Positions 991-22,600 of a stretch of DNA of 64,000 bases are shown in pieces. How positions within the stretch are numbered: the first letter of the stretch is position 1; the number at the start of each line of letters is the position of its first letter. A program made the position numbers and the translations under genes. This DNA is from Okamejei kenojei (lineage: Eukaryota): NCBI GenBank assembly GCA_035221665.1, contig CM069160.1, positions 10,168,001 to 10,232,000 on the forward strand, in the 5' to 3' direction. The notes below the pieces were generated by a model. It was not told where the DNA came from. It did no database searches and saw only the letters and a list, made by a program, of their open reading frames with translations.

Positions 991-1074
991 CTCTATACAG
1001 CTGCCCACTTATTACACACATCACAGGGATCAAATCTACACAAAAATAATTAAATCGATAGCACAAAGCCTGAC

Positions 1075-1170: not shown

Positions 1171-1260
1171 CTGGGGTTGGGTTTCAGATCAGAAAATGAA
1201 AATATCAGAAAATAATGAAAAGATTCGACAATGATGTGATCAAAATTGGTTTGGTTTTAC

Positions 1261-1671
1261 CTTGTAGAATTCAATTGCTTCATCTACCGGCATGAAGCTG
1301 TGAGACTTGTGTTCCCGCCCAGCTGCACAAATCACACAGATCAGTTTCTTGTCCGTTTCACAAAACAGCTTCAGTTCTTCCTGATGTTTCTCGCAGTGAA
1401 GTTTACTTTCCTTCTCTTTGAGATTCAGGCTCAGTGCTCGAGCTTTCTCAGACAGTCTCGCCAAGGCCCGATTCACCCTGAGGCTGCGGTCCACAAACTC
1501 CTCTCTACATTCCGGGCAGGAGTTACTCGCCTCCCTGTCCCAACTCTGTGTGATGCAGGAGCGGCAGAAGTTGTGCCCGCACTCCAGTATAACCGGGTCG
1601 GCGAAGAAATCCAGGCAGATGGGACAAACTGCCTCCTCGGTCCAACTCTCCACCTGGTCTTTCGAAGCCAT
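1261..1671 (-). CDS. TRIM gene A, coding exon 1 (RING C3HC4 + B-box2); class IV TRIM, TRIM39/A33/NF7-like
   Basis: [36 protein letters not shown] and CEKH..CETD..CVIC..HKSH B-box2; 411 bp open exon ending AAG|GTAAAA donor. Confidence 0.95.
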
Positions 1672-1746
1672 TTTAAATCCTCCTCTTCCTGGTTCAAAGT
1701 GTTTTCACCGACGTGGAGCTGCTGAATATGGTCATGGACACGTGAC

Positions 1747-2060
1747 CGTCACGGTGACGCGGCGGCAGAGTTGCTGCCTTGCGGCGAATGCAGCGCCTCA
1801 CAGACCCGGGTTCGATCCTGACTACGGGTGCTGTCTGTACGGAGTCTGCACGGTCTCCCCGTGATCTGCGTGGGTTTTCTCCGAGATCTTCGGTTTCCTC
1901 CCACACTCCAAGGTTTGGGAAATGTAAAAAAATGGCTTGGTAAATGTAAGAATTGTCCCTAGTGTAGGACAGTGTTAATGTCCGGGGATCGCTGGTCAGC
2001 GAGGACCTGGTGGGTCGAAGGGCCTGTTTGCGCGCTGTATCTATAACCTAAATTAAACTC
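1747..2060 (+). mobile_element. tRNA-derived SINE (HE1/V-SINE-like); mirror ~56262-56565(-)
   Basis: A-box-like cgcggcggcagag, B-box ggttcgatcc, V-domain-like ctccccgtg..gcgtgggttttctcc..tttcctcccacactccaa, CR1-like tail ending in taaa-type repeats. Confidence 0.8.
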
Positions 2061-2073
2061 AACCCCTCCCAGT

Positions 2074-2101
2074 CTGAAGAAGGGTCTCGACCCGAAACGT
2101 C
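2074..2101 (+). ncRNA. Minimal hammerhead ribozyme-like motif (representative copy)
   Basis: CTGAAGA-A-GGGTCTCGACCC-GAAAC-GTC: CUGANGA and GAAA core boxes, stem II GGGT/ACCC, palindromic ACGT stem III, GUC site; stem I weak. Confidence 0.55.
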
Positions 2102-3569
2102 GCCTATCTCCTTCACTCCTTAGATGCTGCTGCACCCGCTGAGTTTCTCCAGCCTTTTGTGTACCCTCGATTCTCCAGCATCTGCAGTTCATTCGTTAAC
2201 ACACCCTACAGTACCGTGTCGCTGCGCCCGCTGCCGTCCTGGCAATTACTGCCATTTGGCTACAAGTGTTCAGTGTGAAGATGTTCTGGCCGCTTCCAGC
2301 TCATCTCACACGAGGGAGGGGTAGATTGGATATTAAACTGGCCTGAATATGGACGAGATAAGTCAGGACAGAAGGGGACGGGGCCCGGTGCTAAGGAAGC
2401 CTCGGGTGTAACCTGAGGAGACGTTGCACCTATTGGGCAGTGGAACCCGCCGCCCGCATCTCCGTTCACAGCCCGGGATCAGGATGGACCCAGACCTCCC
2501 TCCGCCCTTATTTTTATTCCACAACAGTGCACCTGTCTCTCATGCAGTAGTCTTCGGCGGCAGGCTAATGATCAAGTTTAAGGAAACAGCGCGTGACCAA
2601 TGGAGAATCGAGGGTATTCAGGACCCCGGTGTACAAATAATCCGAGATGCGCCCCAACCAGCTTCTATTTTGCGTGCGATGGCTTGCAGCTTAACCTTGC
2701 ACTGTTTCATGTAATGTGTATTGTCTTTCTGCTGACTGGATAGCACGCAACAAAAGTCACTGTAGTAGAACACGCGACAATAAACTGAACTGACAATCTT
2801 ATTCCCTTAGATAGGCACAAAATGCTGGAGACCGTCTCTACCTGAAACGTCACCCATTCCTTCTTCCAGAGATGCTGCCTGTCCGCTGAGTTACTCCAGC
2901 ATTTTGTGTCTATCTGCGGTTTAAGCAGCATCTGCAATTCCTTCCTACTCCGCATATTCCCCTTGTTGCTTCTCTCTCTGAATTCTGTGCCCATTTGAAC
3001 CGCGCACAGATGGGAAAGACCTCCGCCCCATCCCGCCCACCCCACCGCCCTCCTCACCCCCCTCTCCACACCGGACACGAGCTTGAACCCTCTGTGAAAG
3101 CTTCAAATTCCATTCTCCACGGGAACCTGCACCGCTCTCCGGCCTCACCTCGGCCCGAATCTCCTCATCCTTGAAACCATTCCAGTGAATATCTCCTGCG
3201 CCCTCCCGATGACCCTCGCGTCATTCATTAAGTTTCGTGACCAGAAATAGGTTTGATGCACCAGTTGGGTACAACCTGTGTTTTATAACGATTCAACAAA
3301 ACCTCGGATGATGTACGAAGGAACTGCAGATGCCTGTTAAATCGAAGACATTCACATGGAGTATCCCAGCAGGACAGAGCTCCCGAGGATTTTGAAGAAC
3401 AACTGCAAAGAGAAGCAGGAAAAAGCAGTGACTGGCTCTCGCCCGAGTGGAGGAGAGTTAGAAGTAGGTCAGAGGGAGAAAACAGAGGAATTTGATACAA
3501 TAATACAATGATATAAGTTATTTGTTGTCATATGAACCTCGTGCAGTTCAAACGAAATTTGGATGGTAA

Positions 3570-4922
3570 ATTGGCACATTAGGCAAATTAATCAGTCAAT
3601 ATAAGCGAGACGGCTTCAGCGGCCTTGTGAGGGAAGTGCCTTCTGAGAAAAAGTCTTTGGTTCGAGAGTGCCTCGAAAAGAGTGCCTTGTGAGAAAAGTG
3701 TGAGTCTTTGGTTCGAGAGTCTTCGGCGAGGAGGCAGAGGAGAGGAGGCTAACATAAAGCCGAGAGGACGGAGCGCGGTGAACGCGGTGAACACATGTTG
3801 GAGTAGATGGGACAGTGTGAGGCTTGCAGAATGTGGGAGCCCAGGGAACACAAATGGAGCCTCTGGCTGCTACAACTGTGGCAAGTGCGCCCAGCTTCAG
3901 CTGCTAAATGACTGTGTTGGGGCACTGGAGAAGCAGCTGGATGACCTCAGGTCCATCCAGGAAAACGAGAGTTTCCTGGACAGGACCTACAGTGAGGTAG
4001 TCACGCCTAGGACACGGGAAGAACCAATGTGTGCGACTGAGAGAAAGGGTGGAAAGAGTGCAGAAGACCCAGGTGGCTGTGCCTAATGAAAACAGGTACG
4101 TCCTCTTGGGAGCTGTCCGGGGAGACGATTCCTTGTCCGAGGGGCAAAATAGCAAATAATTAGTTAAGACCAAAATTGGACCCATGAAGACCGAAAAAGG
4201 TGAATTGATTATGGGGAATAAGGAAATTGGAAGATGCGTTGAACAGGTACTTTCGATCTGTCGTCATTAAGGAGGACACAAACAATCTTCCTGATATAGT
4301 GGTGGCCAGAGGATCTGGGTTGATGGAGGAACTGAAGGAAATCCACATTAGGCGAAATTGTGTTGGATAGATGATTGGACTGAAGGCTGATAAATCCCAG
4401 GGCTGATGGTCTGCATCCCAGGGTACTTACGGAAATGGCTCTAGAAATCGTGGATGCATTGGTGATAATTTTCAATGTTCTATAGGCTCAGGATCAGTTC
4501 CTGTGGATTGGAGGGTAGCTCATGTTATTCAGCTTTTTAGGAAAGGTGGGAGAGAGAAAACAGGAAATTATAGAAAGGTTAGCCTGACATCGGTGGTGGG
4601 GAAGATGCTGGAGTCAATTATAAAAGATGAAATAGCCGAACATTTGGATAGCAGTAACAGGATCGGTCCGAGTCAGCATGGATTTACAAAGGGGAAATCA
4701 TGCTTGACTAATTTTCTGGAATGTTTTGAAGATGTAACTAGGAAAATGGACAAGGGAGAGCCAGTGGATGTAGTGTACCTGGACTTTCAGAAAGCATTTG
4801 ATAAGGTCCCACATAGGACATTAGTGGACAAAATTAGGGCACATGGTATTGGGAGTAGAGTGCTGACATGGATGGAGAAGTGGTTGCAGACAGGAAACAA
4901 AGAGTAGGGATTAACGGGTCCC
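3570..4922 (+). mobile_element. CR1-clade LINE: 5' UTR with tandem repeat, ORF1 N-terminus, joined by internal deletion to mid ORF2 (RT start); mirror ~52758-54250(-)
   Basis: YNCGKCAQLQLL..LEKQLDDLRSIQENESFLD (zinc finger/zipper of CR1 ORF1); DWRVAHV..GNYRKVSLTSVVGKMLESII..QHGFTKGKSCLTN..VDVVYLDFQKAFDKVPH. Confidence 0.8.
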
Positions 4923-5319
4923 TTATGAATCTCACTATATCACCGTATATATCTCTCGCTTCCCTTTCCCCTGACTCTCAGTCTGAAGAAGGGTCTCGAC
5001 CCGAAACTTCATCCACTCCTCCTGTTACTCCAGCTTTTTGTGGCCCTCTGCTGACGTTGTACTCTGGGCCTTCATTGATGCGGTTCTGAACTCCCGTTGT
5101 CATTACTGGCTGCAGTTCAATGTGATTTACGCAGGTAAAGCTCTCGGTGGTCTCCGAAAAGAGATGCGAGGACATTGTATAAATGTTAGCGGGTTGTGAC
5201 GCTGCAATGCTGAGAACTCTATGCTGCACATTGTAACTGTCCCTTTTCCCTATCTACTGGAGTTTGACTTGATTGTATTTATCTTGGTACAATCTAATTT
5301 GACTGGTTAGGATTCAAAT

Positions 5320-5650
5320 CAATAGACATTAGGTGAAGGAGTAGGCCATTCGGCCCTTCGAGCCAGCACCGCCATTCAATGTGATCATGACTGATCATTC
5401 CCAATCAATACCCCGTTCCTGCCTTCTCCCCATATCCCCTGACTCCGCTAGATTTACGAGCCCTATCTAGCTCTCTCTGGAAAGTATCCAGAGAACCGAC
5501 CTCCACCGCCCTCTGAGGCAGAAAATTCCACAGACTCACAACTCTCTGTGTGAAACAGTGTTTCCTCATCTCCGTTCTATATGACTTACACCTTATTCTT
5601 AAACGGTGGCCCCTGGTTCTGGACTCCCTCAACATCGGGAACATGTTTCT
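5320..5650 (-). mobile_element. CR1 3' fragment; mirror ~52027-52350(+)
   Basis: SRTRGHRLRI..FTQRVVSLWN..GYGEKAGTGY. Confidence 0.85.
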
Positions 5651-6435
5651 GCAAAGAAAGTAATATATCAAGAATATAAATGGATAACGATTTATCCAGG
5701 AGGCGTGCATCTTATTTAGTCGATAAATTCACTGCACTGCCCCATCACAAACGCTGCTGTGGCTGGCGGAGTGTTCCAGTGATTACAGCAGCCGCCAGCG
5801 AGACCAAACGACGTGGGTTCTGCCTGTGTGGACTTTGTTCATTCAACATCTCCCCACGTGCTTTTCCCGCGGCTGCTCCAGTTTCCGGCCACTTCCCGAA
5901 GACGTGAGAGGCTCTCGGTGAATTGGCTGCTTGATGTGACCCCAGCGTAGGTTGGTGTGGGGGTGGAGGGAAGGGGGAATAGGGTAGGGTGAGGGGAGGT
6001 GATGGTACGAGTGCGAGAAATGAGTGCAGGCAGTGGGGCTGATGGGAATACAGTGAGTGAGTGGCGGCAGAGAGTTGAGACACAAGAGCCAGGAGATGCT
6101 GGAAACTTGAACAAAACATAAATTGCCTGTCGCCTCAACGGGTCAGGCAGCATCTGTGGAGGGACATGGATGTTTCACGGTTCGACGCGTGATCCTCAGA
6201 CTTGATGGACGATTGGCTTCTTGTATATTTAATCGTGCGTAAAAAAGAACAAGCCTTTACAGAATTTCACTTTCAGAACTTGAATTTCCCCTTGAACCGT
6301 GCGGCCGCTTGTAGGACTTGGTACAACTTGATTTTGCTCGTATACTGTGTGATTTGGATGGATAAACGCGAGGCTTTTCACTGTACACGGAAATAATAAA
6401 CCAAACTAAACCAATACCACCATGTTGTTGTCAGC

Positions 6436-6609
6436 NNNNNNNNNNNNNNNNNNNNNNNNNNNNNNNNNNNNNNNNNNNNNNNNNNNNNNNNNNNNNNNNN
6501 NNNNNNNNNNNNNNNNNNNNNNNNNNNNNNNNNNNNNNNNNNNNNNNNNNNNNNNNNNNNNNNNNNNNNNNNNNNNNNNNNNNNNNNNNNNNNNNNNNNN
6601 NNNNNNNNN
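6436..6609. other. Assembly gap next to a (TGAA)n microsatellite
   Basis: N run; homologous gap at 51047-51237. Confidence 0.99.
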
Positions 6610-6649
6610 GGTGAATTCCAGTGAATGTGATGAACAATGAAATAAATGA

Positions 6650-7713
6650 AGGGTACACAAAAAACTGGAGAAACTCAGCGGGTGCAGCAGCATCTAAGGA
6701 GCGAAGGAGATAGGCGACGTTTCGGGTCGAGACCCTTCTTCAGACTGGTCAGGGATCAGGGAAACGAGAGATATAGACGGTGATGTGGAGAGATAAGGAA
6801 CAATGAGTGAAAGATATGCAAAAAAGTATCGGTGATAAAGGGAACAAGCCATTGTAAGCTGTTTGTGGTGTGAAAATGAGAAGCTGGTGCGACTGGGTGG
6901 GGGAGGGAGATAGAGATAGAGGGAATGCCAGGGCCCGAGGGCTGATGGAGAGGTGGGAAGGGGAGGAGACAGCAAGGGTTAACAGAATTGAGAAAATTCA
7001 ATATTCAAGCCCAAAGGATGCAGACTCCCCAAGCGGAATATGAGGTGCTGTTCCTCCAGCTTGCGGTGTTGCTCACTCTGGCCGTGGAGGAGGCCCAGGA
7101 CCGAGAGGTCGGATGTGGGAATGGGAGGGGGAGTTGAAGTGCTGAGCACCGGGAGGTCGGGTTGGTTATTGCGGACCGAGCGGAGGTGTTCGGCGAAGCG
7201 ATCGCCAAGCCTCCGCTTGGTCTCACCGATATAGATCATCTGGCATCTGGAGCAGCGGATGCAGTAGATGAGGTTGGAGGAGGTGCAGGTGAACCTCTGT
7301 CGGACCTGGAAGGACTGCTTGGGTCCCTGAAAGGAGTGGAGGGGGGAGGTGAAGGGACACGTGTTGCATTTCTTGCGGTTGCAAGGGAAAGTGCCCGGGG
7401 AAGGGGTAGAGTGGGAGGGGAGGGAAGAATTGACAAGGGAGTTGCGGAGGGAGCGGTCTTTGCGGAAGGCAGACAGGGGGGGAGATGGGAAGATGTGGCG
7501 GGTGGAGGGGTCACGTTGGAGGTGGCGAAACTGGCGGAGGACTATATGTTGTATTTGCCGGCTGGTGGGGTGAAAGGTGAGGACCAGGGGACTCTGCCCT
7601 GTTTGCGAGTGGGGGAATGGGGAGCGAGGGCAGTGTTGCGGGGTATGGAGGAGACCTGGTGCGAGCCTCATCAAAGTGGGGGAGGGAATCCCCGTTCTCT
7701 GAAGAATGAGGCC
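6650..7713 (-). mobile_element. Penelope-like element, 5'-truncated (GIY-YIG endonuclease + 3' tail/pLTR)
   Basis: ORF 6979..7674: PLVLTFHP..CNRKKCNTCP..FTCTSSNLIYCIRCSRCQMIYIGETKRRLGDRFAEHLRSV..LGSLHPLGLN; tail carries CTGAAGA..GAAAC motif. Confidence 0.92.
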
Positions 7714-7967
7714 ATGAATGAATAAATGAATGAAGGAATAAATGAATGATACTTTATTATCACATGGGGCAGGTCACAGTGGGTTTCTTTGTATTCCATA
7801 CACATGTGTGAAAAATATACATCTTCTAGATGCGCCGGGACGCATTCTCAGTGTTGTATACAAAGAGTTACAGATTATTAGTCCCCAAGCCGACCCTGCA
7901 GTGCGTTTTCAGGCAGCAGGTGGGGATCCTGCAGGTGGCGAAATTGCACAGACCTTTGGACAGCTCT

Positions 7968-7987
7968 GCATCGCCATCTGGTGGCTG
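7968..7987 (-). promoter_or_regulatory. CTCF-like motif (mirror ~49625-49645)
   Basis: Minus strand GCCACCAGATGGCGA fits the CCACYAGRKGGC core. Confidence 0.5.
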
Positions 7988-10064
7988 AATGCGGCAATGT
8001 CATGTCCAAGAAGCAACTGCAGATGCTGGAAAAATCGAAAGCAGACAAAAAATGCTGGAGGAACTCAGCGGGTGAGGCATTAGCGGGTGACCCCTGAAGA
8101 AGGGTCTCAGCCCTAAACGTCGCCCTGAAGAAGGGTCTCGACCCGAAACGTTGCCTATTCCTTCTCTCCGTAGATGCTGCCTCACCCGCCGAGTTTCTCC
8201 AGCATTTTTTGTCTACTTGCGGCAATGCAAAGAACATTTCCTGACATGCATGAGGTGGAATAGTGGAGGGTTCCTCAATGCAGCAGCGAGAAATAAACAT
8301 CTGGTCGAAGCAAAAGGATAAAGAACCATTTATGGGGAATAAGTGTCAAGGGCCGTGACCCAGAATCAAGCCGACCTGATGCAGGATTGCAGATTGCAGC
8401 ATCTGCAGACTTTCGTGTCTCCGTGAATTCAGGACTTCAACAACATCAATAACAGAACATGTTTTAATGTGCAGCGGGACTGACAGGGTCAGGGCAAATT
8501 CCGACCAGAGACTCGGAATACCAATTCAAGTTCTCTCTCCGCAGATCCTGCCTGGCCAACTGCGGACCCATCCCAAGCCCACTTGACTATCTCAGCTTTG
8601 TCCACCCACACAACAGAGGTCTGGGCTCAGGCAAAAAAGTCTGAGTCAGAGATTTTGCAACCCACTTAGTTAGGAGCTGGGAATGCTGATTACAAATCTG
8701 GAAGATTACGTACATGGGGGATGGAATGGCAACATTCCTTGAATGAGGAGCGAGGATTATTTACTAATATTGGAGTAGGAAGAGTAAGTGTGGCCCGCAG
8801 TTTAAGGGGGGAACGTTGTGAGGAGTGACATAGATGCAAACTCAGATTAAGGACAAGTAAGAATTTCATTACTCCGCCGCGGGACAGATGACAATTAACA
8901 ACTCATGAATACCCTTTCCCTCTCTTTGACTGCGGGCTGCCATTAAATGTTTCACCTGATGGATTGGGTGAAAGAAGGGAAGATACAGAAGCAGATAATC
9001 AGAGAGGAAAAAATGTCAAAGGGATTGGTTCATTGAAATCAAACCCGCTTACAATATTGTAGGTCAGTAGATTAATACACAGATAGAGAACATTTAAACC
9101 TCTGGTTGTTGCAGTTGGATAAATCCCACGACCAGTAACATTCATAAGAACCGAATAGAAAGATTGTGTTATTTCGAATTATGTGCTTGGTGCTTCTAAT
9201 ACTCCAATTGAAATAAAACCCAAATCGCTTTGGACAGTATAGCTTGCTTTTAAACTCTGTCTGTGAATGTTTCTGTCTGTAAATTGACTCCTGCATTTCA
9301 GTTGCCATTCCTGGCTGCGCTTCAAATCGAGAATTCCAGCAGTAACGCATTTTGGGGTCTCCTAAAAGAGATGCGAGGACATTGTGTAAATGTAAGCGGG
9401 TTGTTGCTGTACGCACTCGATCTTGGAGGGAATATTCCATTTCCGATGCGCAAACAGGGGTAGTGGATAGACGAAGTAGCCGATGGCGTCCGCGGGCTTG
9501 GAATGGATATTGGTCACTCGGCTTGTCTCGAGACGGCGAGAAAGCGAAGGGAAGAGTCGGGGCTCGAGAAGCGGAAAGGTGGGCACTGTTGGAGACTGGC
9601 AGTGAGGGAGATGAAGCGTGAAAGCGGTGACCGAGAGCAGGAAGCAGCACCGGTACAGACATGATGTACCCGAGAGAGAGGTGAGGGAGGGGTCTGGCGG
9701 CGACTGAAACAAGGAATGATCTACGTATCCTACAGAGAGACAGACAGAGCCTGAGCACAACGGGATCCCACCTGGAACCGGGAATTCGGTTTGAACCCAT
9801 TCTTCCACAGATCCGATCCGAAGAAAACTAATCTGTTGTGGGGAGAGGAAATGCTGCAAACACGATATAATTCTAATAGTCGGCGGACTTTACCCGGGGG
9901 AGCCCGGAGCTCAGGACCCGCCGCCCGCGGCCGCTGCTGAACCCGCGGGAAGGGCGATTGTTTCAATCTTTATATTTTCACAAAAGTAATTTCTGTTCCG
10001 TTGCCGGACGCGGTTAACGCGTTAAAATGAACGGATCGACAGACAGCTCTGATTTCAGTTGCTG

Positions 10065-10107
10065 TTTATTTCACTCTTCCCACATTTACATTCCCCCTGG
10101 TTTTATT
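10065..10107 (-). promoter_or_regulatory. Two candidate poly(A) signals (AATAAA) of TRIM gene B
   Basis: TTTATT at 10065-10070 and 10102-10107, ~145-185 nt after the stop; also present downstream of B' and A'. Confidence 0.55.
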
Positions 10108-10250
10108 TCCGCGCTCACTGGGGTTTCACGACGCGGAATTTGGGGATTAAATGGGAGCCGTTCGTTCAGCGCCGACCTGTTGTCCACCGGGTTTCTGCCC
10201 CCACAGCCCCTGAGCCCCGCTCCTGACGCCGGTCCCGGGACCCGACCCTT

Positions 10251-10783
10251 TTACACACCCGGAGCGGAACCGGAGCAGATTCTCAGCCACTGGTTTTCAT
10301 CCCAAGGCCCGAAGAAAGGATAAAGTTTCCCCGTGAATTTATTCCCAGTGAAGGTGTGGAGATGGGACTTGGTGTCCGCGTCGTAAAATGAAACTGTCCC
10401 GGACTCGTAACTGAGATAAACTCCCACCCTCCCGGGGATGGGACGGGCGGGGAGAGGGGATGGAGGGGAGGTGAATGCTTTAAACTCGTCATCATCGCGC
10501 CTGATGATCCAGACTCCAGTCTCCGGGGTCAGTGTGAACAGTCTCTTCCTCTCCACAGACTCTGCGGCGACTCCCAGACACCAGCGCCGACTCCCCGCCA
10601 CCTCCACCTCCCAGTAATGTCTCCCCGATGTGAATCCCTCCGATCCCAGCACACACGCCCAGTCTGTAAACCTCTTCCCGGTGTCAGGGAGACTCCTCCA
10701 GGTCCCGGTCCATCTCACCCTCTTCCGATCCTCAGACACCTCGAGCCACGGATGCGCTGTTTCCACATCCAGGGTGACGGAGA
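10251..10783 (-). CDS. TRIM gene B, exon 6 (PRY/SPRY, B30.2 domain), intact
   Basis: CCCCAG|TC acceptor; VTLDVETAHPWLEVSED..RF..CVLGSEGFTSGRHYWEVEV..WCLGVA..RVGVYLSYESGTVSFY..LYPFF; stop at 10251. Confidence 0.95.
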
Positions 10784-11269
10784 CTGGGGGGAGAAGCAGA
10801 GAATCAGAGAGTCCCCGGGGGTCGGGGGGAGACTCGGGCACAGGCGGGCAGACAACTGAACCCTTGCCCGGGGTTTGACACCAACCACATCGGATGGACA
10901 ACAGACAACTTTCTCGGAGTTTCTCAACCCGGCAGGAGAGGGGGAAATCCGCGGGTTATCGGGAACGGGAGGGGTCGGGCGGACGGGCAAAACGAATGCG
11001 GAAAGTGAGGATGAACGAAAGATTGCGGGTGGGGATGGAGAAATAAGCCGGGTATTCAAATATCTTGCCAGTGCATGGCAAATGAGACGCAGATTGCAAG
11101 ATGAGGAGAGGGATGCGAGTGGTAATGAGACGTGGTTAAAGAGGATGTTGAGATGTGGGGTGGAGTTGCGTGATCATACTGAACTGGAGAGGCCATCTTC
11201 TACTGTTTACTTGCTTTCTTTAGTGGAGGGTGGATTTGATGCGCCGATACAACCAAGAACACACTGATC

Positions 11270-13020
11270 TCATTGTGAACCAATACATGAACTTCACTGA
11301 GGGACTTGACAATATTCCGCATGTAGGGCTGGTCCAAAGGGAAGTGGGATCTAAACGAGCTGGGTAAATAGATCCAACATTCCCCTTGTGCTTGGAGGTG
11401 GAAGGTGACGGTAGAAGGATGATTTTTCTGCCTGGAGGTCTGTGACTGGTGGTGTGCAGCAGAGATCGGTGGTGCACCCTTTGCTGTTTATTTTATATTT
11501 TCCTGGCTTGGATGTGAATGTAGGAGGTGTGACTACTAAGTTTATGGAGAACAGGTAATACCTGTGGATAGCATGGAATTCTCAAAGTTTGCAACAAGAT
11601 AGAGGCTAGATCCTCCAAAGCTTATGTTCATACAGGGATATCAAAACTGGAGGGCGCGGGTTTAACACAAGAGGATGGAGATTTAAAGTGGGTCTGAGTG
11701 GTAAGTTTACTTCACGCAGAGAGTTATTGATACCTGGAATATTTTGCCAGAGGAGGTGGCGGACTAAGATGTAATCACTACATTTAAGCGGCATTATGAT
11801 GTAACAAATGACGTGTAGAATAATATGGTCCTAATGTGGGCAAATTGATTAGTGTAGCTGGGAAAAAATGTGTACATGGACACGTTGGGCCGAGGGGCCT
11901 GACTCTGTAATGTACAACCATGGCTCTCTGGCTCCAAGAGCACTGAATGAGTGAATCTTCACAACTACCCGTGCAGGGCATTCCAATGGTTGCCCAGTCT
12001 CTACGTGCCGTAATGTCTCCTTGTCTCTGTCCTAAATGTTCCAGCCTACATTCTGAGAGGATGTCCGCTGCCTCCAGACCCCTCAGACAGGGGAGACATC
12101 CTCCCTGCACGCAGCCCACTGAGCAGTGTACGGACTTTGTATTTCCCAGAGATCTCGTCAAATACAATTGGACTCTCGAGCAAGCAGGCGGAGACCACTC
12201 AATGTCACCCGCACAACAAATATCGTTATGGAACCAAGTATTGTCAATCGTTACTACTCTGTGCAGACTTTATCTTTGTATAAGTAGAAAAAAACATAAG
12301 ACAGGAAGAAAATAGGTGCGGAGTAGGCTTCGCATCTCAGGCCTATCCCCTGTTCAATGTGATCATGGCTGATCGAAGCTGGTCCCAGATCCTCTTCAGT
12401 GTAACTTCCCCATAACCCTCAGTCGAATGATCTTACCAATATCCAACTATTTTCCCTTCACCAATTCCAAAAATCTGGCCTGTCACCATAAATTAGGTCA
12501 CACAATTCCAGATATTTACTGCTCTGTTAGAGAAACAACTTCAACCCTCTGCGTGGTACGTGGTCTGGATGTTTTGATCTGATCGAATCCAGGGCGAGTT
12601 ACACAATGGAGCATAACCGTGGTCTGAAGGCAGTAGACAGAAGGTTGGTGGAGGAATGCTTTTTAAACTGGAGTCTCTCGCAGAGGGTGTGCCATAGAGC
12701 TTGATGCTCTCTCCATTGTTGGTCGTTATGTATACGAACGCTTTGTATGTGTATGTGGGTGACATAGTTAACAGGCTTGTTGAGGACACTAAAATTGGTG
12801 GCGTCATGGAGAGTGAAGAAGGTTATCCGAGATGAAATGTGATCTTAATTAGCAGGTGTAATTGGCTGAAGAATGGAAGACGGAATTTTCTAATGTTGAA
12901 AGATTGGGGGCATCAGTTTAAGGTGAGATGGTAAAGTTGGAAAAGGCATTGAAGGTCAATGTTTTCAGAGATTGGATTGTAGAGAGATAGAATGAGATTC
13001 CAGAGGCGGAGGTGAGTACA
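11270..13020. mobile_element. Old degraded CR1 fragments in intron 5 of gene B (~11270-11920 +, ~12300-12540 -, ~12545-13020 +)
   Basis: Remnants of RT (..gacactaaaattggtgg = DTKIGG) and CR1 3' tail sequences. Confidence 0.6.
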
Positions 13021-13097
13021 GTTACTGCGTAATGTTCACATTTATTGTACTTACAGGTGTAATCAATGAGAAGAATGGAAAACTGAACAAGTTTTAC

Positions 13098-13213
13098 CTC
13101 GCTGAATGGCGCAGGTTTCTCTCCACAACGTGTTCAACACAAAGTGGTGATGAATCTTTTCAATCGGCAAGGCACCATCTGTCACTGACAATGTATGAAC
13201 TTCATCACTGAAC
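13098..13213 (-). CDS. TRIM gene B, exon 5 (linker)
   Basis: TTTGCAG|GTTCAG...CAGCGAG|GTAAAA; 116 bp, phase 2 to 1, FSDEVHTLSVTDGALPIEKIHHHFVLNTLWRETCAIQR. Confidence 0.85.
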
Positions 13214-13309
13214 CTGCAAATATTTATCAACTGGTTAGAAGCTGAGCTTCAACAATTTCGGAGCTGTTCTACAAAAACATACAGCGTTTCAATCAAGAGC
13301 GTGTCCTAC

Positions 13310-13332
13310 CTCCTTTTCCGACCAGCTGCCTC
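13310..13332 (-). CDS. TRIM gene B, exon 4 (23-bp micro-exon)
   Basis: TTTCTTTCAG|GAGGCAGCTGGTCGGAAAAGGAG|GTAGG; the 23-bp exon is characteristic of class IV TRIMs; phases fit neighbouring exons. Confidence 0.85.
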
Positions 13333-13578
13333 CTGAAAGAAATAAGACACACGTCTGAATAACTGAGACACAACATCCACATTCCGACAGCAGAAATGAC
13401 ACGCAGATTGCCACAAGATTCCTATTAACCAACTCTTATTGCGGCAGCCACACTGACATGTATAGGATATTTCTGTCGGGACAAAGGTCCACGGGGGGGA
13501 AACACCAGGAACGTACATGGAAATGATGCCATTATTGAGACGGTGCACGTTACGGGCAAGAATGAGAAAGTGGTGGGG

Positions 13579-14168
13579 TGTTATTGGTATTGGTAAGACC
13601 AATTCTGGAGTATGGTGTACAATTTTGGTCGCCTAGTTATAGGAAGGATGTCAACAAAATAGAGAGAGTACAGAGGAGATTTACTAGAATGTTGCCAGGG
13701 TTCCAGCAACTATGTTACAGAGAATGGTTGAACAAGTTAGGTCTTTATTCTTTGGAGAGCAGAAGGTTAAGGTGGGACTTGATTGAGGTCTTTAAAATGA
13801 TGAAAGGGATAGACAGAGTTGACGTGGATACATTTTTCCCATTGAGAGTAGGGAAGATTCAAACAAGAGGGCATGACATGAGAATTAAGGGACAGAGGTT
13901 TCGGGGTAACGTGAGGGGGAACTTCTTTACTCAGAGGGTGGTGGCTGTGTGGAATCAGCTTCCAGCAGAAGTGGTGGAGGCAGGATCGATTTTAACATTT
14001 AAGAGTAAAGTGGATAGGTATATGGACATGAAGGGAATGGAGGGGTATGGTCTGAGTGCAGGTAGATGGGACTAGGGGAAAACAAATGGTCGGCACGAAC
14101 TGGAAGGGCCGAGAGGGCCTGTTTCCGTGCTGTAATTGTTATATGGTTATATGGTTTATATGGTTATG
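13579..14168 (+). mobile_element. CR1 3' fragment with (ATATGGTT)n tail; mirror ~38300-38950(-)
   Basis: LVRPILEYGVQFWSP..IERVQRRFTRM..NFFTQRVVAVWNQLP. Confidence 0.88.
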
Positions 14169-14639
14169 TGAAGAAGATGCCAGGGAATGAAGGGATGGGA
14201 AGATTTAAGATTATCTCTGTGGATTTAAATGGGTGGTGGGGGGGGGGGGGGGGGACAAATATTATTCCTTCTTTTGGGGAGACCAAAATTCAAAGATGAA
14301 ATAAGTGATGGCCTTCAATAAATCTCATTAGTCATGCGCAAAAGGAACGTGAACTCAGTCGCACAAAGTGGCCGAAGCCAATGTTCGACATACATTGAAG
14401 GGGAAGCAGGATAAGCGCAAGAGATTTCCCCGTTTGCCCCATTCCTGCATGTTCAATTCATGGATGACATATGATAAATGATGATGTTGTGCGCCACGTT
14501 CTAGATTTCAATGTTAATCTCCCACAATGTGGTCATGGCTAATCTTGGGTACTCCCATCCCCTCCCCCCCTACCCCCCCATTCCCCTCATGTTCAATTCC
14601 TGGAATTTTCAACAACAAAAAGTCTCGCCTTCTGGTTCA

Positions 14640-16118
14640 AATACTGCCGACAGTTTCAAACCCCAGAACCAGTCCCTGCAAACATGTACTGTCCCTGCCT
14701 GCTTCAAAGTCTCCACTATTATCCCTGTACACAAAAAGGCAAGGAGTACTTGTCTTAATGACTACAGGCCTGTCGCACTGACCTCTGTAGTCATGAAGAC
14801 ACTTGAAAGGCTTGTGTTGGCCAAGCTGAAATATATCACAAACTCCCTGCTGGACCCTCTGCATTTTGCATATTGGGCCAATAGATCAGTGGATGATGCA
14901 GTCAACCTGGGCCTGCACTTCATCCAACAGCACCTAGACCGCCAGGGGACCTATGCGAGGACCCTGTTTGTTGATTTTAGCTCTGCATTCAACACCATTG
15001 TGCCAGAGCTACTACACTCCAAACCTTTCGAGTTGACTGTGCCTGAACCCCTCTGTCAGTGGATCACCAACTTCCTGACAGACAGGAAGCAGCATGTGAG
15101 GCTGGGAAAGCATATCTAGGACCCGCAAACACTCAGCATAGGAGCACCGCAAGGCTGCGTACTCTTCTTCTCTCCTCCACTCTCTCTACACCAATGACTG
15201 CACCTCCACAGACACCTCTGTCAAGCTTCTCAAGTTTGCGGACGACACAACTCTGATTGGACTGATCCAGGATGGGGAGGAATCTGCCAACAGATAGGAA
15301 GTGTCACAGCTGGCATCCTGCTGCCGTCGCAACAACCTAGAGTTCAATGCTCTTACGACAGTGGAATTGATTGTAGACTTTAGGAGAGCTGCCCTCCCTC
15401 CCCCCACTCACCATCAACAACACCACAGTCACATCTGTGGAGTCTTTTAAATTCCTGGGAACCATCATCTCCAAGGACCTAAAGTGGCGGACTACCATCG
15501 ACTCCACAGTCAAAAAGGCACAACAGAGGATGTACGTCCTACGGCAGCTGAGGAAGCACAATCTGCCACAGGCAATGATGGTCCAATTCTACACGGCCAT
15601 CGTAGAGTCTGTTCTCACCTTCTCCATCATGGTCTGGTTTGGCTCAGCCACCAAGCACGACACCTGGAGGCTGCAGCGAATCGTCCAATCAGCAGAGAAG
15701 GTTATTTGCTGCAACCTTCCCTCCATTGATGAACTGTACACTGCAAGGGCCAGGAAGCGAGCGGGCAAGATCATCTCTGACCCCTCTCACCCTGGCCACA
15801 AACTCTTTGAATCACTTCCCTCTGGAAGGCGACTCTGGACTTTCAAAGCTGCCACAGCTAAACATAAAAATAGTTTTTATCCACGAGTAGTTGCTCTACT
15901 CAACAGCCAGAAATCTGTAGCCTCCCTTTGATCTGGTATTTTGTTGATTCACATGCTTCATCAATGGTGTTTTATCATTAATGTCTTGTTATTATTAACG
16001 TTTAGAGTTTTCTGAGTCATTCGTAACTGTCACTGTATGTCATGTTGTTACTTGTGGGCGGAGCACCAAGGCAAATTCCTTGTATGTGAATACTTGGCCA
16101 ATAAACTTACTTACTTAC
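14640..16118 (+). mobile_element. Rex1/Babar-type non-LTR retrotransposon, 5'-truncated, in intron 3 of gene B (antisense)
   Basis: [49 protein letters not shown]; KFADD; FKFLGTIISKDLKW..KKAQQRMY; AATAAA followed by (TTAC)n tail. Confidence 0.9.
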
Positions 16119-16791
16119 AAAAGTCTCTGGTGATTCACTTTTGTGTTGCGTCCAATGCTGCATCAACATTTCATGGAGAAGGTCATGAAGTCTATGACCT
16201 TCATGACCTTTTGCACGTTCTATGCAAAATGCTTTGATGTAACTTCGGAAAATTGTAACAAACCCCCCCTACAAGATTCTACAAGATATGACCAGCAGAA
16301 GAATAACCAGGGGTACTATTCACCTTTAAGAGCAAAATTATAACTAGGGATAGAGCAGGTCCAATTAAGTGCTGTTAAGGAGGACAAATTCCAATGTGTA
16401 TCCCAGGCTAAAATCATTAGACTGCCTGCACGGCGATGTTCTAACATCACAAACTCCTTTTCCTCTAACGCTGACCATACGGAACACTTTCCCGGTGGTC
16501 TTGTGATTCCTGGAGATTGTCCCTCTTTTCAGGGAAATATTCCATGTTCACACAAACTCAGTGCCAAGATCACAGCGACGGTTTCTCAAGGAGTTTGCAC
16601 ACTGTCCTGAGATCCCATAGTTTATGCAGGAGGCCATTTAGTTTGGGAACAACAGCAGCACATCGCTGGAACAGATGGAACATTGACCCAGCTCTGAATT
16701 ACTGGTAAATGATGCATTAATTTCAGAAATGTCGCCCACCATGTTGTGAATGTGCAGTTTCACTTCGCCTAACTGTAGTGTAACCCCTCAC

Positions 16792-17025
16792 CTTCAGAAA
16801 TATCCCGTTGTCTTTTTGATCTATCTGTTCCTGCAACGTTGAGAGTTCCTTTTGGATGGAATTTAAATTAGCTTGAATCTCTTGAAGCCTTTTCTCCATT
16901 GCGTTCCGAATTTTCTCCTCTTCTGCCCGGACATCTGCGAGTGCACGCCGTTCTTTCTCAATGAAAATCTGGTGCAGTTCAGCAAACTGGGATGTGATCT
17001 GTGACTGAAGGTTGTGTGACTCTTC
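16792..17025 (-). CDS. TRIM gene B, exon 3 (coiled-coil)
   Basis: CACAG|GAAGAG...CTGAAG|GTGAGG; 234 bp open, EESHNLQSQITSQFAELHQIFIEKERRALADVRAEEEKIRNAMEKRLQEIQ...GIFLK. Confidence 0.9.
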
Positions 17026-17334
17026 CTGTGAAATGAAAGATGAAGATCAATATATAATGTCACTGTATTGTGTTTCCTAACGATATGCGATATGATAGTT
17101 GGCCAATCAACCTTGTGGCATGGAGTACAGAAATAGGCCAATTGGCCCAACATGTCTTATGAGTTCCATAGAATAATTACCCTCTGGCAAAATAGGTTTA
17201 TTTTTTTTAGTTTAGAGATACAGCACAGAAACAGGCCCTTCGGGTCCGCGCCGACCAGCAATCCCCACACATTAACAATTTTTACATTTTCCAAGGCAAT
17301 AAACCTACAAACCTGTACATCTTTGTAAGCAAAT

Positions 17335-17987
17335 GTTATGTTAGCTTTCATAGCAAAAGGATTTTTGAGTATAGGAGCAGGGAGGTTCTACTTCAGTTGT
17401 ATAGGGTCTTGGTGAGACCACACCTGGAGTATTGCGTACAGATCTGGTCTCCAAATCTGAGGAAGGACATTATTGCCATAGAGGGAGTGCAGAGAAGGTT
17501 CACCAGACTGATTCCTGGGATGTCAGGACTGTCTTATGAAGAAAGACTGGATAGACTCGGTTTATACTCTCTAGAATTTAGGAGATTGAGAGGGGAACTT
17601 ATAGAAACTTACAAAATTCTTAAGGGGTTGGACAGGCTAGATGCAGGAAGATTATTCCCGATGTTGGGGAGGTCCAGAACAAGGGGTCACAGCTTAAGGA
17701 TAAGGGGGAAATCCTTTAGGACCGAGATGAGAAGGACTTTTTTCACACTGAGAGTGGTGGGTCTCTGGAACTCTCTGCCACAGAGGGTAGTGGACGCCAG
17801 TTCATTGGCCATATTTAAGAGGGAGTTAGATGCGGCCCTTGTGGCTAAGGGGATCAGAGGGTATGGAGAGAAGGCAGGTACGGGATACTGAGTTGGATGA
17901 TCAGCCATGATCATATTGAATGGCGGTGAAGGCTCGAAGGGCCGAATGGCCTCCTCCTGCACCTAATTTCTATGTTTCTATGTTTCT
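17335..17987 (+). mobile_element. CR1 (HER1-like) 3' fragment with (TTTCTATG)n tail; mirror ~34283-34950(-)
   Basis: LVRPHLEYCVQIWSP..EGVQRRFTRLIPG..FFTLRVVGLWNSLP..GYGEKAGTGY. Confidence 0.9.
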
Positions 17988-18029
17988 AATGTTTGTAGTG
18001 TGGTAGGAAACTGAAGATTATCAGAAAAA

Positions 18030-18140
18030 ACTCACGGGGAGAACATACAAAACTCCGTACAGACAGCACCCGTAGTCAGGATCGACCCGGGTCTCGGTGC
18101 TGTATTCGCTGTAAGGCAGCAACTGTGCCCACAGTGACCC
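18030..18140 (-). mobile_element. SINE head fragment in intron 2 of gene B (tail part ~17200-17325, apparently split by the CR1 insertion)
   Basis: actccgtacagacagcacccgtagtcaggatcgacccggg. Confidence 0.65.
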
Positions 18141-18377
18141 CTTTTCCAAGTTCCTCCTCACCTCCTTTCTTAAAAGAGCGCCCTACTAATTCTGAGGCTC
18201 TGACCTCTAGTCCTACAGCCCCACCAGTGGAAACATCCTTTCCACATCCCACTCTATCTACAGTCAGTACCTGCCCGCCCTAGTCTCTATCCCTAATAGC
18301 TACAACCCTCGGCTCCTGTGCTGTAGAGAGGTGTCCTGACGTTAAACGTCACATTGATGAAAATACACACAAGATCA

Positions 18378-18391
18378 GGAAATCGAAACTG
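18378..18391 (-). promoter_or_regulatory. ISRE-consensus motif in intron 2 of gene B
   Basis: Gene-sense CAGTTTCGATTTCC matches AGTTTCNNTTTCY. Confidence 0.45.
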
Positions 18392-18402
18392 GAAAACCTC
18401 AC

Positions 18403-18500
18403 CAGAAACACCAGAAATCTTCTCCTTCTGTTGCTGCTCCATTTGCTCGATCTCTGATTTCTTTTTTGTGAGAGATTCGAAAGGAAGATTTCACCTGATC
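18403..18500 (-). CDS. TRIM gene B, exon 2 (coiled-coil)
   Basis: CTCCAG|GATCAG...TTTCTG|GTGAGG, homologous to gene A exon 2; 98 bp (2 extra nt). Confidence 0.8.
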
Positions 18501-18589
18501 CTGGAGTTGGTTTCAGAACAGAGAAGAAAAATGTCAGAAAATAAAACTAAACGTGACACAAAGAGGTGATCAAAATCGGTTTGCTTTAC

Positions 18590-19010
18590 CTTGTAGATGT
18601 CTAACAGCTTCTTTGCTATCGGTATGAAGCTGTGAGACTTGTGTTCCTGCGCATCATCGACAATACACAGATCAGTTTCTTGTCAGTTTCACAAAACAGC
18701 TTCAGTTCTTCCTGATGTTCCTCGCAGTGAAGTTTACTTTCCTTCTCTTTGAGATTCAGGACTCAGTGTTCGAAGCTTTCTCAGCCAGTCTCGCCAAGGC
18801 CCGACTTCCCCCCTGAGGGTGCGGTCTGCAAACTCCTCTTACATTCCGGGCAGGAGTTTCTCGCCTACCCTGTCCCAACTCTGTGTTGATGCAGGAGCGG
18901 CAGAAGTTTGTGCCCACACTCCAGTATAACCGGGATCGGTGAAGAAATCCAGGCAGATGGGACAAAACTGCCTCTCGGTCCAAACTCTCCACCTGCTCTT
19001 TCGCAGCCAT
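18590..19010 (-). CDS. TRIM gene B, exon 1 (RING + B-box2), frameshifted in this sequence
   Basis: ATG at 19010 (MAAKEQVES..), NFCRSCI and [23 protein letters not shown] in shifting frames, AAG|GTAAAG donor; 421 bp vs 411 bp in gene A through small insertions (likely consensus errors). Confidence 0.85.
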
Positions 19011-19087
19011 TTTTAAATATAAGGACTTCCTGGTTTCAAAATGTTTTTCACTGACGTGGAGCTGCTGAATATGGGCGGTCACGTAAC

Positions 19088-19365
19088 CGTCACGGTGACG
19101 CTGCGGTAGAGTTGCTGCCTTCAGCGAATGCAGCGCTGGAGACGCGGGTTCGATCCTGGACTACGGGTGCTGTTCTGTACGGAGTTTGTACGTTCTCCCC
19201 GTACGTCTTCAGAATGTGGAAACGAACATCTCGGAGAAAACCCACGCTGGTTTTCTCGGGGAGAACGTACTAACTCCGTACAGACAGCACCCGTAGTCGG
19301 GATCGAACCCGGGTCTCTGGCGCTGCAAGCGCTGCAAGGCAGCAAAACTCCACCGCCTGCGCCCC
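19088..19365. mobile_element. Two SINE heads in inverted orientation upstream of gene B; mirror ~32875-33155
   Basis: gggttcgatcctggactacgggtgctgttctgtacggagt (+) and actccgtacagacagcacccgtagtcgggatcgaaccc (-). Confidence 0.75.
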
Positions 19366-19619
19366 CGGGGGAATCAGTGGTGAGAGTGGATCACGGAACA
19401 CTCAGATTCGAAAGCCCAATTGGCAGCATTTCCTCCGCCCCTGCAGCTCATTCTTGCCGCTAATGCTTCCGAGATGGCGCACCAACCAAGGCGGCTATTT
19501 GCGTGCGATACAGATCTACAATCACATATTACAACGCCCCACACTCTTAAATCTCTACTCCCACACTCAAACATTTCTCACTTTAACTATGATCGGGCTT
19601 TAACTATGATCAGACCTAA

Positions 19620-22600
19620 GGGATCTGAATGTGTGGGCTGAGGGGGCTTGGTGTTAGATTTATAGGACCACTGGGATCTCTTCTGAGGTAGGGGGTGACC
19701 TGTACAAAAGCGACGGGTTTGCACCTAACCGGAGGGGGACCGACATTCTGGAAGGCAGGTTTGCTAGGGCTACACGTAGTGGGTTGAAACTAAATAGTTG
19801 GGGGGAAGGATTGACAAAATTGGGAATTATAAAGATGGAGTTGAAGGGGAAGTGGCTACAAGAAAAATTACAAAGATTCTCGAAATTAATGGGAAGGAAA
19901 GCTTGAGAATGGACAACAGAGTAAGGTCAGGGCCAATTTGTGAGGGGGGAAGTGAATACGGAGGTCAAAGTACTGTATAATGAAGGCGCGAAGCATAAGG
20001 AATAAAGTGGACGAGCTTGAAGATCAGTTAGAAACTGGCAAGTATGATGTTTGTGGGAAATTACAGGAGACATGGCTGCAAGAGGGCCAGGGCTGCGAAC
20101 TGAATATTCAAGGGGTATAACTACCTATCGAAAGCAGGCCAGGGTGGGCTGCAGAGGGGGTGGGGTTGCTGTTGGTGAAGAATGAAATTCAGTCCATTGC
20201 AAGGGGTGACATTGAAACAGGAGATGATGTGGAGTCAGTATGGATAGAACTAAGGAATAGTAAGGGTATAAAAATACCCTAATGGGCCTAATCTACATGC
20301 CCCAAACAGTAGCCTGGACATAGGGCGCAAGTTGAATCAAGGAGTTAAAATTGGCATGTAGTAAAAAGTAATGCAAATGTGGTTGTTATGGGATGATTTC
20401 AAACATGCAGGTACACTGGGGAAATCAGGTTGGTACTGGACCCAAGAAAGGGACTTTGTAGAGTGCCTTCATGCATGGATTCTTTGAACAGCTTGTATTG
20501 GAGCCGTACCAGGAAGAAGGCCATATTCTGGATTTAGTGTTATGTAATGAACCGGATTTGATAAAGGACCTCGAGTTTTAATGAGAGCCATTAGGAGGCA
20601 GTGACCATAACATGGTTCAGGTTTTAATCTACAATTGGGGAGGAAGAGACGTGCAGATCGGAGGTGTCAGTGTTGCAGTTGAATAAAGGGGACTATGGGG
20701 CCATGAGGGAGGAGCTGGCCAAAGTTGACTGGAAAGATACACTAACAGGGATGACATTGGAACAAAAATGGCAGGTGTTTCTAGGAATAATACAGAAGGT
20801 GCAGGATCAGTTCATTCCCAGGAGGAAGAAAGATTGCAATGCGAGAAATGGATGACCATGGCTGACAAGGGGCATCAGGGACAGTATAAATATTAAAGCG
20901 AAGAAGTACAACGTAGCAAAGATGAGCGGGAAGCAAGAGGATTGGGTAATGTTTAAAGAACATCCGAAGATAACCAAAAAATACCAATATGGGGAGAAAT
21001 GAAGAGGTACAAAGGCAAGCTAGCCAAGAATTAAAGGAGGATAGTAAAAGCTTCTTTAGGTATGTGAAAGAAGAAAAAAATATTACTATATGAAGAAAGA
21101 CTGGATACCCGCTAGAATTTAGAAGATTGAGGGGGGATCTAATAGAACTTACAAAATTCTTAAGTGGTTGGACAGGCTAGATGCAGGAAGATTGTTCCCG
21201 ATGTTGGGGAAGTCCAGGACAAGGGGGTCACAGTTTTAAGGATAAGGGGGAAATCTTTTAGGACCGAGATGAGAAAAACAGTTTCACACAGAGAGTGGTG
21301 AATCTGTGGAATTCTCTGCCACAGAAGGTAGTTGAGGCCAGTTCATTGGCTATATTTAAGAGGGAGTTAGATGTGGCCCTTGTGGCTAAAGGGACCAGGG
21401 GGTATGGAGAGAAGGTAGGTAGGTAAGGGATACTGAGTTGGATGATCACCCATCATCATATTGAACTGGCGGTGCAGGCTCGAAGGGATCTGAATGGCCT
21501 TCTCCTGCAGCTATTTTCTATGTTTCTATGTTTCTATGTTTAAGACCAAAGTTGGACCCTTGAAGACTGAAAAAGGTGAATTTATTATGGGGAACAAGGG
21601 AATGGCAGATGAGTTGAACAGGTACATTGGATCTGTCTTCACTAAGGAGGACACAAACAAATTTCCTGATATTAGTAGTGGCCAGAGGATCTGGGGGTGA
21701 CAGAGGAACTGAAGGAAATCCACATTAGGAGGCAGGAAATGGTGTTGTATAGACTGATGGGACTGAAGGCTGATAAATCCCCAGGGGCCTGATGGTCTGC
21801 ATCCCAGGGTATTAAGGAAGTGGCTCTAGAAATCGTGGATGCTTTGGTGATAATTTTCCAGTGTTCTATAGATTGATGATCAGTTCCTGCGGATTGGAGG
21901 GTAGCTAATGTTATCCCACTTTTTAAGAAAGGCGGTGAGAGAGAAAACGGGGATTTATTGACCTGACATCGGTGTGGTGGGGAAGATGCTGGAGTCAATT
22001 ATAAAAGACGAGATAGCTGCACATTTGGATAGCAGTAACAAGGTCGGTGCGAGCCAGCATGGATTTACGAAGGCGAAAATCATGCTTGACTAATCTTCTG
22101 TAATTTTTGAAGATGTAACTAGGAAAATGGACAAAGGGAGAGCATGGGATGTAGTGTTCCTGGACTTCCAGAAAAAGCATTTGATAAAGGTCCCACATAG
22201 GAGATAAGTAGGCAAAATGAGGGCACATGGAATTGGGGGGGTAGAGTGCTGACATGGATAGAGAAGTGGTTGGAAAGACAGGAAACAAAGAGTAGGGATT
22301 TAAACGTGGGTCCCTTTCAGAATGGCAGGCAGTGGCGAGTGTGGTAGCGGCAAGGCTCGGTGCTGGGACCGCAGCTATTTACAATATGCATCAATGATTC
22401 GGGATGAAGGGATTCAAAGTAACATTATGCAAATTTGCAGATGATGACACAAAGGTGGGTGGCAGTATGTTGAACTGTGAGGAGGAGCTATGAGAATGCA
22501 GGGTGACTTGGACAGGATGGGGGAGTGGGCACAGATGCATGGCAGATGAAGTTTAATGCGGACAAATGTGAGGTTATCCACTTTGGTAGCAAAAACAGAA

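Follow-up and report, generated by a model that had tools for sequence, protein, structure and literature searches.

When neighbouring copies of a TRIM gene differ at a few discrete spots of an otherwise near-identical PRY/SPRY exon, do the differences record selection on a binding surface or errors of the assembly? We addressed this question for genes in a 64,000-nucleotide stretch (the window; C30:10168001-10232000 of a 2.76-Gb assembly), where an initial annotation had proposed that two mirror copies, B and B', belong to a diversified innate-immune receptor repertoire. The window contains the following features.

1078..1671, minus strand: RING/B-box exons of gene A, located by tblastn with P0044
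10251..10783, minus strand: last exon of gene B, an intact PRY/SPRY (B30.2) exon with 28 positively selected codons
10784..10922, minus strand: intron tract of ~140 nt adjoining this exon and common to butyrophilin-like genes of C30, giving the 5' edge of the tract
13098..13213, minus strand: linker exon of gene B, also supported by spliced contigs of family members
13310..13332, minus strand: small exon of gene B, 23 nt
16792..17025, minus strand: coiled-coil exon of gene B, 92% to P0044
18407..19010, minus strand: RING/B-box and following exon of gene B, located by tblastn with P0044 and frameshifted in the assembly
28658..29157, no strand: 500-N stretch at the mirror centre, likely a scaffold gap
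33253..39462, plus strand: RING/B-box, coiled-coil and linker exons of gene B', indel-ridden
41967..42516, plus strand: PRY/SPRY exon of gene B', with 28 substitutions, 20 inserted and 3 deleted bases relative to B
42779..47626, plus strand: LTR-bounded retrotransposon-like insert ~260 nt behind the B' stop, with none at B
56692..58611, plus strand: RING/B-box and coiled-coil exons of gene A'
60619..61153, plus strand: PRY/SPRY exon of gene A', very noisy, with its nearest copy being L108 (C30:11.96 Mb) and not A

The limits of the gene B exon had been annotated exactly. An AG acceptor lies directly upstream of the exon, which runs on the minus strand from 10783 to 10251 and has an open 177-aa PRY+SPRY translation. 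It matches Pfam PF13765 (PRY) and PF00622 (SPRY), both in the one exon, and adopts the B30.2 fold by structural model and Foldseek. Gene B as a whole is organized as a class IV TRIM, with RING and B-box, coiled-coil and small linkers in order and a C-terminal PRY+SPRY exon, and indels increase towards the contig end around the RING/B-box stretch at 18407..19010. The intact PRY/SPRY exon of gene A lies outside the window, to the left (C30:10164796-10165328). The insert at 42779-47626 has protease-, RT- and integrase-like fragments, identified by eye, and terminal repeats of ~190 nt. A 37-bp tandem repeat of six copies with 96% matches is present at window positions 53980-54202.

The motif pairs that had been noted between B and B', DWA/DSL, RRWC/RGWS, AAGAGACTGTTC/AAGGGAGAGGTC and IIRRDDDE/SIWRNNDG, were present in a three-way alignment with A'. 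The pair CCTTTC/ACTTAC and part of ENQW/KDHW are less secure, as the C>A change of the former occurs in 0 of 67 paralogs and both may be noise. As had been proposed, the B-B' substitutions were concentrated at discrete spots, with 19 of 28 falling in 28 of the 177 codons (16% of the exon, Fisher p=2e-10), a codon set defined from 68 intact exons that included B and excluded B' and A'. When 28 codons were defined independently from the proteins of another skate, they held 20 of the 28 substitutions (p=1e-11). Bases differed between B and B' by 22.9% in the 28 codons, 2.0% in other codons and 2.1-2.5% in the adjacent flanks, so substitutions are far less dense in flanking DNA than at the selected sites. 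The suggestion that A' varies at the same spots was upheld in part: 20 of its 52 substitutions relative to B lie in the 28 codons (p=2e-5) and 28 of the 52 are shared with at least two paralogs, but A', with 19 inserted and 18 deleted bases, is noisier than B'.

This noise raises the question of whether B' is a duplicate read of B whose clustered differences arose from sequencing or alignment error. B' and A' lie in one indel-noisy 40-kb contig, gap openings reach 26-48 per kb in the B' arm compared with 2-8 in the clean copies L099 and L009, insertions dominate the B' indels and the mirror centre is an N stretch. However, 20 of the 28 substituted letters of B' recur in at least two of 67 paralogs (8 recur in fewer than two), which is not what noise would give. 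The W-R-N-N-D-G run of B' is present in copy L026 too, the 4.6-kb LTR insert distinguishes B' from B, and the pattern persists in clean exons without B' or A'. We therefore consider error a highly improbable source of the pattern, in agreement with the initial annotation, which had discounted indel-type read noise. From its sequence, B' is likely a real paralog in an unpolished contig, with most substitutions real and the indels noise, and some of the 8 non-recurring substitutions are likely errors.

The mirror arms extend over window positions -1021..23393 and 59465..29174. Stretches of 500 N occur every 40-60 kb in the flanks too and are likely scaffold gaps, and the previous one is surrounded by a second inverted near-copy pair with tandem-repeat blocks (C30 ~10.117-10.151 Mb, window -50883 to -17208). 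The recurrent N stretches and this second pair indicate that the mirror orientation is likely a scaffolding outcome, and a true inverted duplication was not supported on the same grounds, its centre being a 500-N stretch. A' was ruled out as the mirror copy of A beyond 59465, where L108 is nearest. The idea of B and B' as a special mirror pair was not borne out, as the mirror is centred on a gap and other copies are closer. Both L099 and L009 are closer to B than B' is.

Head-to-head scaffolding of a haplotype duplicate would make B and B' two alleles of one locus, with their differences maintained by balancing selection. Collinearity over ~24 kb, including the 5' half of gene A, the second inverted pair and the MHC linkage of the region would fit such alleles, but 5' introns and body are common to B, B', L099 and L009 at 1-2.6% difference (in the low-noise parts), and four copies are too many for two alleles. 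Moreover, the upstream part of B', including its 5' body, is closer to L009 than to B, and A' matches L108, not A. Downstream, B' is nearer to L013 and to a copy at +140 kb; since the nearest copies differ between upstream and downstream, the units are mosaics and at least some of them are paralogs. The annotation had left open divergent alleles or paralogs, and of these we regard paralogs in an array of hundreds as the best reading and alleles as unlikely. The family-wide selection described below stands whether B and B' are alleles or paralogs.

Selection was evaluated on a sample of the family. Of 126 exons fetched, 72 were open and 54 not open; L005 and L150 (local frameshifts) and L068 and L097 (<85% identity) were dropped from the open set, leaving 68 exons without B' and A', a sample biased towards B-like copies. 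With a codon tree and FastTree, and a codon likelihood of our own that reproduces the IQ-TREE M0 value (lnL -8253.89), M0 gave an omega of 1.51 across the 68 exons. Model M2a was favored over M1a (2dlnL 901) with an omega2 of 7.9 at 16% of sites, and the comparison of M8 with M8a gave 864. The 28 selected sites are those with a naive empirical Bayes posterior >0.95 under M2a, and a tree built without the selected codons retained 26 of them. In gene B they are H11, W13, W25, G27, W29, D41, W42, A43, R66, R67, C69, R81, L82 and T84 in the first half and R95, D97, D98, E100, K102, F104, P108, P110, F157, G159, P160, W161, D162 and E163 in the second. Undetected recombination could inflate the omega of these site models. 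A tree-free comparison gave the same picture: nine pairs with introns 1-3% apart differed by 19% at the sites and by 1.7% elsewhere in the exon, and B, B', L099 and L009 differed pairwise by 12-29% at the 28 codons and 1.1-2.9% elsewhere. The top 28 variable sites coincided at 23/28 positions in Leucoraja, 22/28 in Rhinoraja and 21/28 in stingrays plus sawfish, the sequences of these other species being database gene models. Site models, tree-free pairs and replication in other rays thus all support a positively selected B30.2 repertoire.

Hot spots could also arise if mutation were locally elevated or if surface loops were under relaxed constraint. Many of the changes are multi-base, and codons neighbouring the selected sites have a synonymous rate ~2x that elsewhere (alpha 1.5; pS 0.097 compared with 0.048). 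At the sites themselves, however, the synonymous rate is not raised: pooled rates at the sites were 0.75 (synonymous) and 8 (nonsynonymous), compared with 1.5 and 1 in the codons beside them and 0.75 and 0.5 far away, so that the nonsynonymous rate at the sites is ~10x the synonymous one. When the synonymous rate was left free site by site, 21 of the 28 sites were significant at p<0.05. Near-invariant residues such as I94 and R96 alternate with hypervariable ones along strands, and relaxed constraint cannot outpace the intron rate eightfold. Taken together, the omega of ~8 at 28 sites without a raised synonymous rate there makes an account without selection very unlikely.

More weight attaches to the proposal that short conversion tracts shuffling loop cassettes between paralogs are the main source of diversity, with selection secondary. 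In favour of shuffling, patch haplotypes reappear on different backgrounds and 67 of 68 combinations across the sites are unique; linkage among sites is strongest within 3 residues, and the flanks are mosaic. Against it, PHI-type tests inside the exon gave no recombination signal (p=0.93, 0.14, 0.76), and the 68 versions of patch 93-104 include 62 distinct ones, too many for a small pool; selection would still be needed to create the cassettes. We consider shuffling unlikely as the main source and prefer positive selection as the principal cause of the diversity. With PHI not significant, the case for conversion in this family, whose framework is ~95% identical across the array, is carried by tract borders, mosaic flanks and trees.

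The position of the selected sites was examined on a predicted B30.2 structure (pLDDT 90.9). Foldseek matched the model to the B30.2 domains of BTN3A1 and TRIM21 with TM scores of 0.92-0.94. By DSSP, 12 of the 28 sites are in a strand or bridge, 10 of them within strands of at least 3 residues, and selected sites alternate with near-invariant residues along strands (for example I94 and R96), several in an i,i+2 pattern. This alternation indicates that the variable surface comprises a pocket floor in addition to loops. The description of the sites as variable loops therefore holds for some of them, and about 10 of the 28 sit on the beta-strands of the pocket floor. The selected regions are presumably equivalent to the TRIM5 variable regions v1-v4. 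The accessible text of PMC4670481 names eight antibody-contact residues of TRIM21, two of them from its IgA model. In an alignment anchored on the D355A chain 8y58, TRIM21 residues W299, D355, L370, W381, W383 and F450 correspond to selected residues W13, C69, T84, R95, D97 and D162, the W383-D97 correspondence having a one-column ambiguity, and L371 and D452 correspond to the non-selected L85 and N164. Six of the eight contacts fall on selected sites (p=2e-4). On the model, and by analogy with TRIM21, the 28 sites line a predicted ligand pocket equivalent to the Fc-binding pocket of TRIM21.

We then consider the family to which B belongs. A DNA search returned 401 candidates, of which 40 were scored at 94-97% identity; 38-mer exact matches in the same genome numbered 179, and a Pfam PRY search gave 516 candidates, with 126 of 150 scored matches on C30 by hand count. 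These array sizes are lower bounds and may include false duplicates. Given the RING frameshift of B and the 54 of 126 exons that are not open, exon counts say little about how many of the genes work. Matches to MHC class I number 15, and every one lies on C30, at 1.5-8.5 Mb, interspersed with B30.2 exons. A search for MHC class II beta gave no match, and the control gave none either. Skate models named "zinc-binding protein A33-like" and "TRIM39-like" are the nearest proteins, at 82-92% identity, and database names among the closest relatives are TRIM39-like, zinc-binding protein A33-like and nuclear factor 7-like. The likeness to finTRIMs suggested by the annotation did not hold, as the nearest models belong to the MHC-linked class IV TRIMs and, by database names alone, are TRIM39/btr-like. 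Membership of the finTRIMs was rejected: the full-length relatives P0041 and P0044 have one B-box by inspection, and the closest relatives are skate and ray proteins. Contigs from three runs skip a 96-nt intron and continue into neighbouring exons (the RNA status of the runs is guessed, and X17 is probably DNA), which indicates that family members, rather than B itself, have spliced transcripts; runs with small word shares were left out of this evidence. The coiled-coil and linker regions are likewise variable among 40 Rhinoraja TRIMs.

Several copies depart from the common form. In L155 (C30:32481061), which may be a single-exon TRIM or a retrocopy, the PRY match lies within an open frame of 593 aa. 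A divergent B30.2 subtype, ~79% to B with a different PRY half, includes L097 and L117 (C30:10.675 and 16.36 Mb) and L068 (C28). Copies L131, L135 and L122 have in-frame insertions of ~6-10 codons near the C-terminal loop, after residue 160.

Collectively, we think it probable that B, B' and A' belong to a class IV TRIM array with several hundred members on the MHC class I chromosome, whose predicted pocket diversifies under positive selection. Duplication and exon-limited conversion would keep the B30.2 framework uniform, and pathogen pressure would diversify the ~28 pocket codons, each copy likely binding a different pathogen-derived target. Both TRIM5, which varies mostly between species, and TRIM21 bind multivalent targets as coiled-coil dimers and ubiquitylate them through the RING. 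Dimers of the skate proteins would engage multivalent targets in the same way, and ubiquitylation of the bound target by the RING would follow if the E3 activity of TRIM5, TRIM21 and reptile TRIMs extends to this array. The array would then constitute a large natural library of predicted substrate-binding pockets on one E3-ligase scaffold.

The finTRIM, btr and trim35/hltr families of teleosts have B30.2 domains under positive selection at TRIM21/TRIM5-type variable regions (accessible parts of PMC2657112 and PMC3137616) and resemble the skate array as multigene class IV TRIMs with selected B30.2 domains and linkage to the MHC or its paralogues. Unlike these expansions, the skate array is on the MHC class I chromosome itself, has one B-box and a framework ~95% identical, and comprises hundreds of exons, compared with the 40 ftr, 18 btr and 61 other TRIM genes counted in the available text of 10.1101/022061; its selected sites number 28, compared with 16-17 in ftr and 7 in btr. 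The finTRIMs are described in PMC2657112, as far as accessible, as teleost-specific, TRIM16/25-related proteins with a RING and two B-boxes. Zebrafish NLR-B30.2 genes offer a second parallel, with hundreds of genes on one chromosome and B30.2 domains homogenised across subfamilies by putative conversion; one exon-shuffling event with finTRIMs has been proposed (10.1101/022061, in part). In zebrafish the conversion is among NLR groups, whereas the exon pool of skates and of stingrays, separately, spans cytosolic TRIMs and two unrelated butyrophilin-like subfamilies. TRIM21 and TRIM5alpha have the same fold as the skate domain (TM 0.92 to the TRIM21-Fc chain 2iwg_B), and the selected sites map onto the antibody pocket of TRIM21. 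According to the accessible text of PMC4670481, TRIM21 antibody binding is conserved across mammals, whereas the skate pocket varies between paralogs in one genome. The squamate harbiTRIM cluster, in the portion of PMC12262214 available, encodes TRIM E3 ligases with distinct antiviral profiles, and an iguana TRIM was shown to ubiquitylate a multivalently bound target. As clustered non-mammalian TRIM E3 ligases, harbiTRIMs are a functional model for the skate array, although their antiviral activity is demonstrated and the array is known here from sequence.

The same exon is found in butyrophilin-like genes. Skate butyrophilin-like models have B30.2 domains 82-92% identical to that of B, and the genome analysed here has eight close IgV exons between 34.27 and 34.90 Mb of C30. 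Each of the 7 genes examined has a family B30.2 exon behind its Ig and transmembrane exons on the same strand, and the fetched segments of these genes gave no TRIM N-terminal matches. The genes at C30 34.25-34.93 Mb have the butyrophilin order of leader, IgV, IgC, TM and heptad exons followed by the B30.2 exon, with no RING between. Both heptad exons are present in 5/5 type-1 genes scanned, and a scan of 2 type-2 genes with type-1 peptides located neither. Two butyrophilin subfamilies carry the family exon, and their IgV domains are just ~40% alike; type-1 ectodomains have stingray counterparts at 60-64%.

The stretch that the butyrophilin-like genes share with B, at 88-94% identity, starts ~140 nt into the intron (~55 nt in one gene) and reaches the stop codon, where the match ends in 6 of 7 genes. 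B30.2 frameworks group by lineage: a branch with support of 100/99 sets 24 skate TRIM and butyrophilin rows apart from the rest, and a clade of butyrophilins was rejected (p-AU 9e-5 with 42 rows, 5e-9 with 52 rows); the trees hold 52 and 42 of ~190 domains, with too few shark TRIMs for sharks to be placed. Median framework identity of skate butyrophilins was 0.91 to skate TRIMs and 0.84 to stingray butyrophilins, in a table where P0159 is mislabelled; gene types were assigned by hand (P0043 TRIM, P0159 butyrophilin), and P0159 is absent from the trees. Paralogs therefore group by lineage and not by gene type, and the shared tract is bounded, as is characteristic of a concertedly evolving exon. 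The butyrophilin pocket is also variable, at 18 of 28 sites compared with 3 of 142 others among six copies of this genome, and at 27 of 28 compared with 14 of 142 among 17 stingray models. From these comparisons, the exon is shared between TRIMs and butyrophilins, likely by gene conversion. Either independent exon replacement in each lineage or ongoing conversion may fit the sharing, and gene conversion or unequal crossing-over would homogenise the framework across both gene types.

A bolder reading, which we put forward tentatively and regard as possible, is that skates and rays maintain an MHC-linked pool of hypervariable pocket exons, continually exchanged between cytosolic TRIMs and surface butyrophilins with two outputs. 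If so, a pocket for an intracellular pathogen target would be wired to destruction or to inside-out T-cell signalling, with the butyrophilin pocket speculatively triggering signals to T cells, and the repertoire would amount to a germline-encoded, antibody-like intracellular sensor system. Butyrophilin B30.2 domains may then act as diversified sensors and not as fixed metabolite detectors, and the exchange of a hypervariable pocket with TRIMs makes butyrophilin sensing testable with defined constructs. No living lineage with an MHC and gamma-delta T cells is older than the cartilaginous fish. The skate genes have the IgV-IgC-TM-heptad-B30.2 architecture of BTN3A1 and BTN2A1 (PMC7348870 and PMC12841164, in part), but the mammalian B30.2 domain senses phosphoantigens, whereas the pockets of the skate and stingray copies are hypervariable and their frameworks TRIM-like. 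The accessible part of PMC12841164 also reports that in some cartilaginous fish the MHC chromosome carries butyrophilins, and argues for butyrophilin ligands beyond gamma-delta receptors.

In the literature searched, mostly open papers, we found no description of the skate array or of TRIM-butyrophilin B30.2 exon exchange. TRIM and butyrophilin terms appear nowhere in the main text of PMC10751288, the main paper on the cartilaginous-fish MHC, so the gene content of C30 looks under-described. Term searches of PMC10620051, PMC8455134 and 10.1101/2025.06.08.657570 gave nothing on this TRIM family; the last catalogues tandem gene clusters of a stingray and a skate, which may include the skate TRIM cluster. 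The system is known in kind from the diversified B30.2 repertoires of teleosts and reptiles, and what is new is the lineage, the scale and the butyrophilin link.

Two further observations concern the butyrophilin-like genes. In several of those at C30 34.25-34.93 Mb (L183-L218), another B30.2 exon follows the first at a distance of 5-8 kb, for example at 34503646, 34606933, 34883924 and 34928737, in agreement with the tandem-domain model P0009. Among the shark butyrophilin models P0129, P0154, P0034 and P0036, some B30.2 domains are 48-53% identical to B and others are of the family type at 68-73%, hinting at replacement events in sharks.
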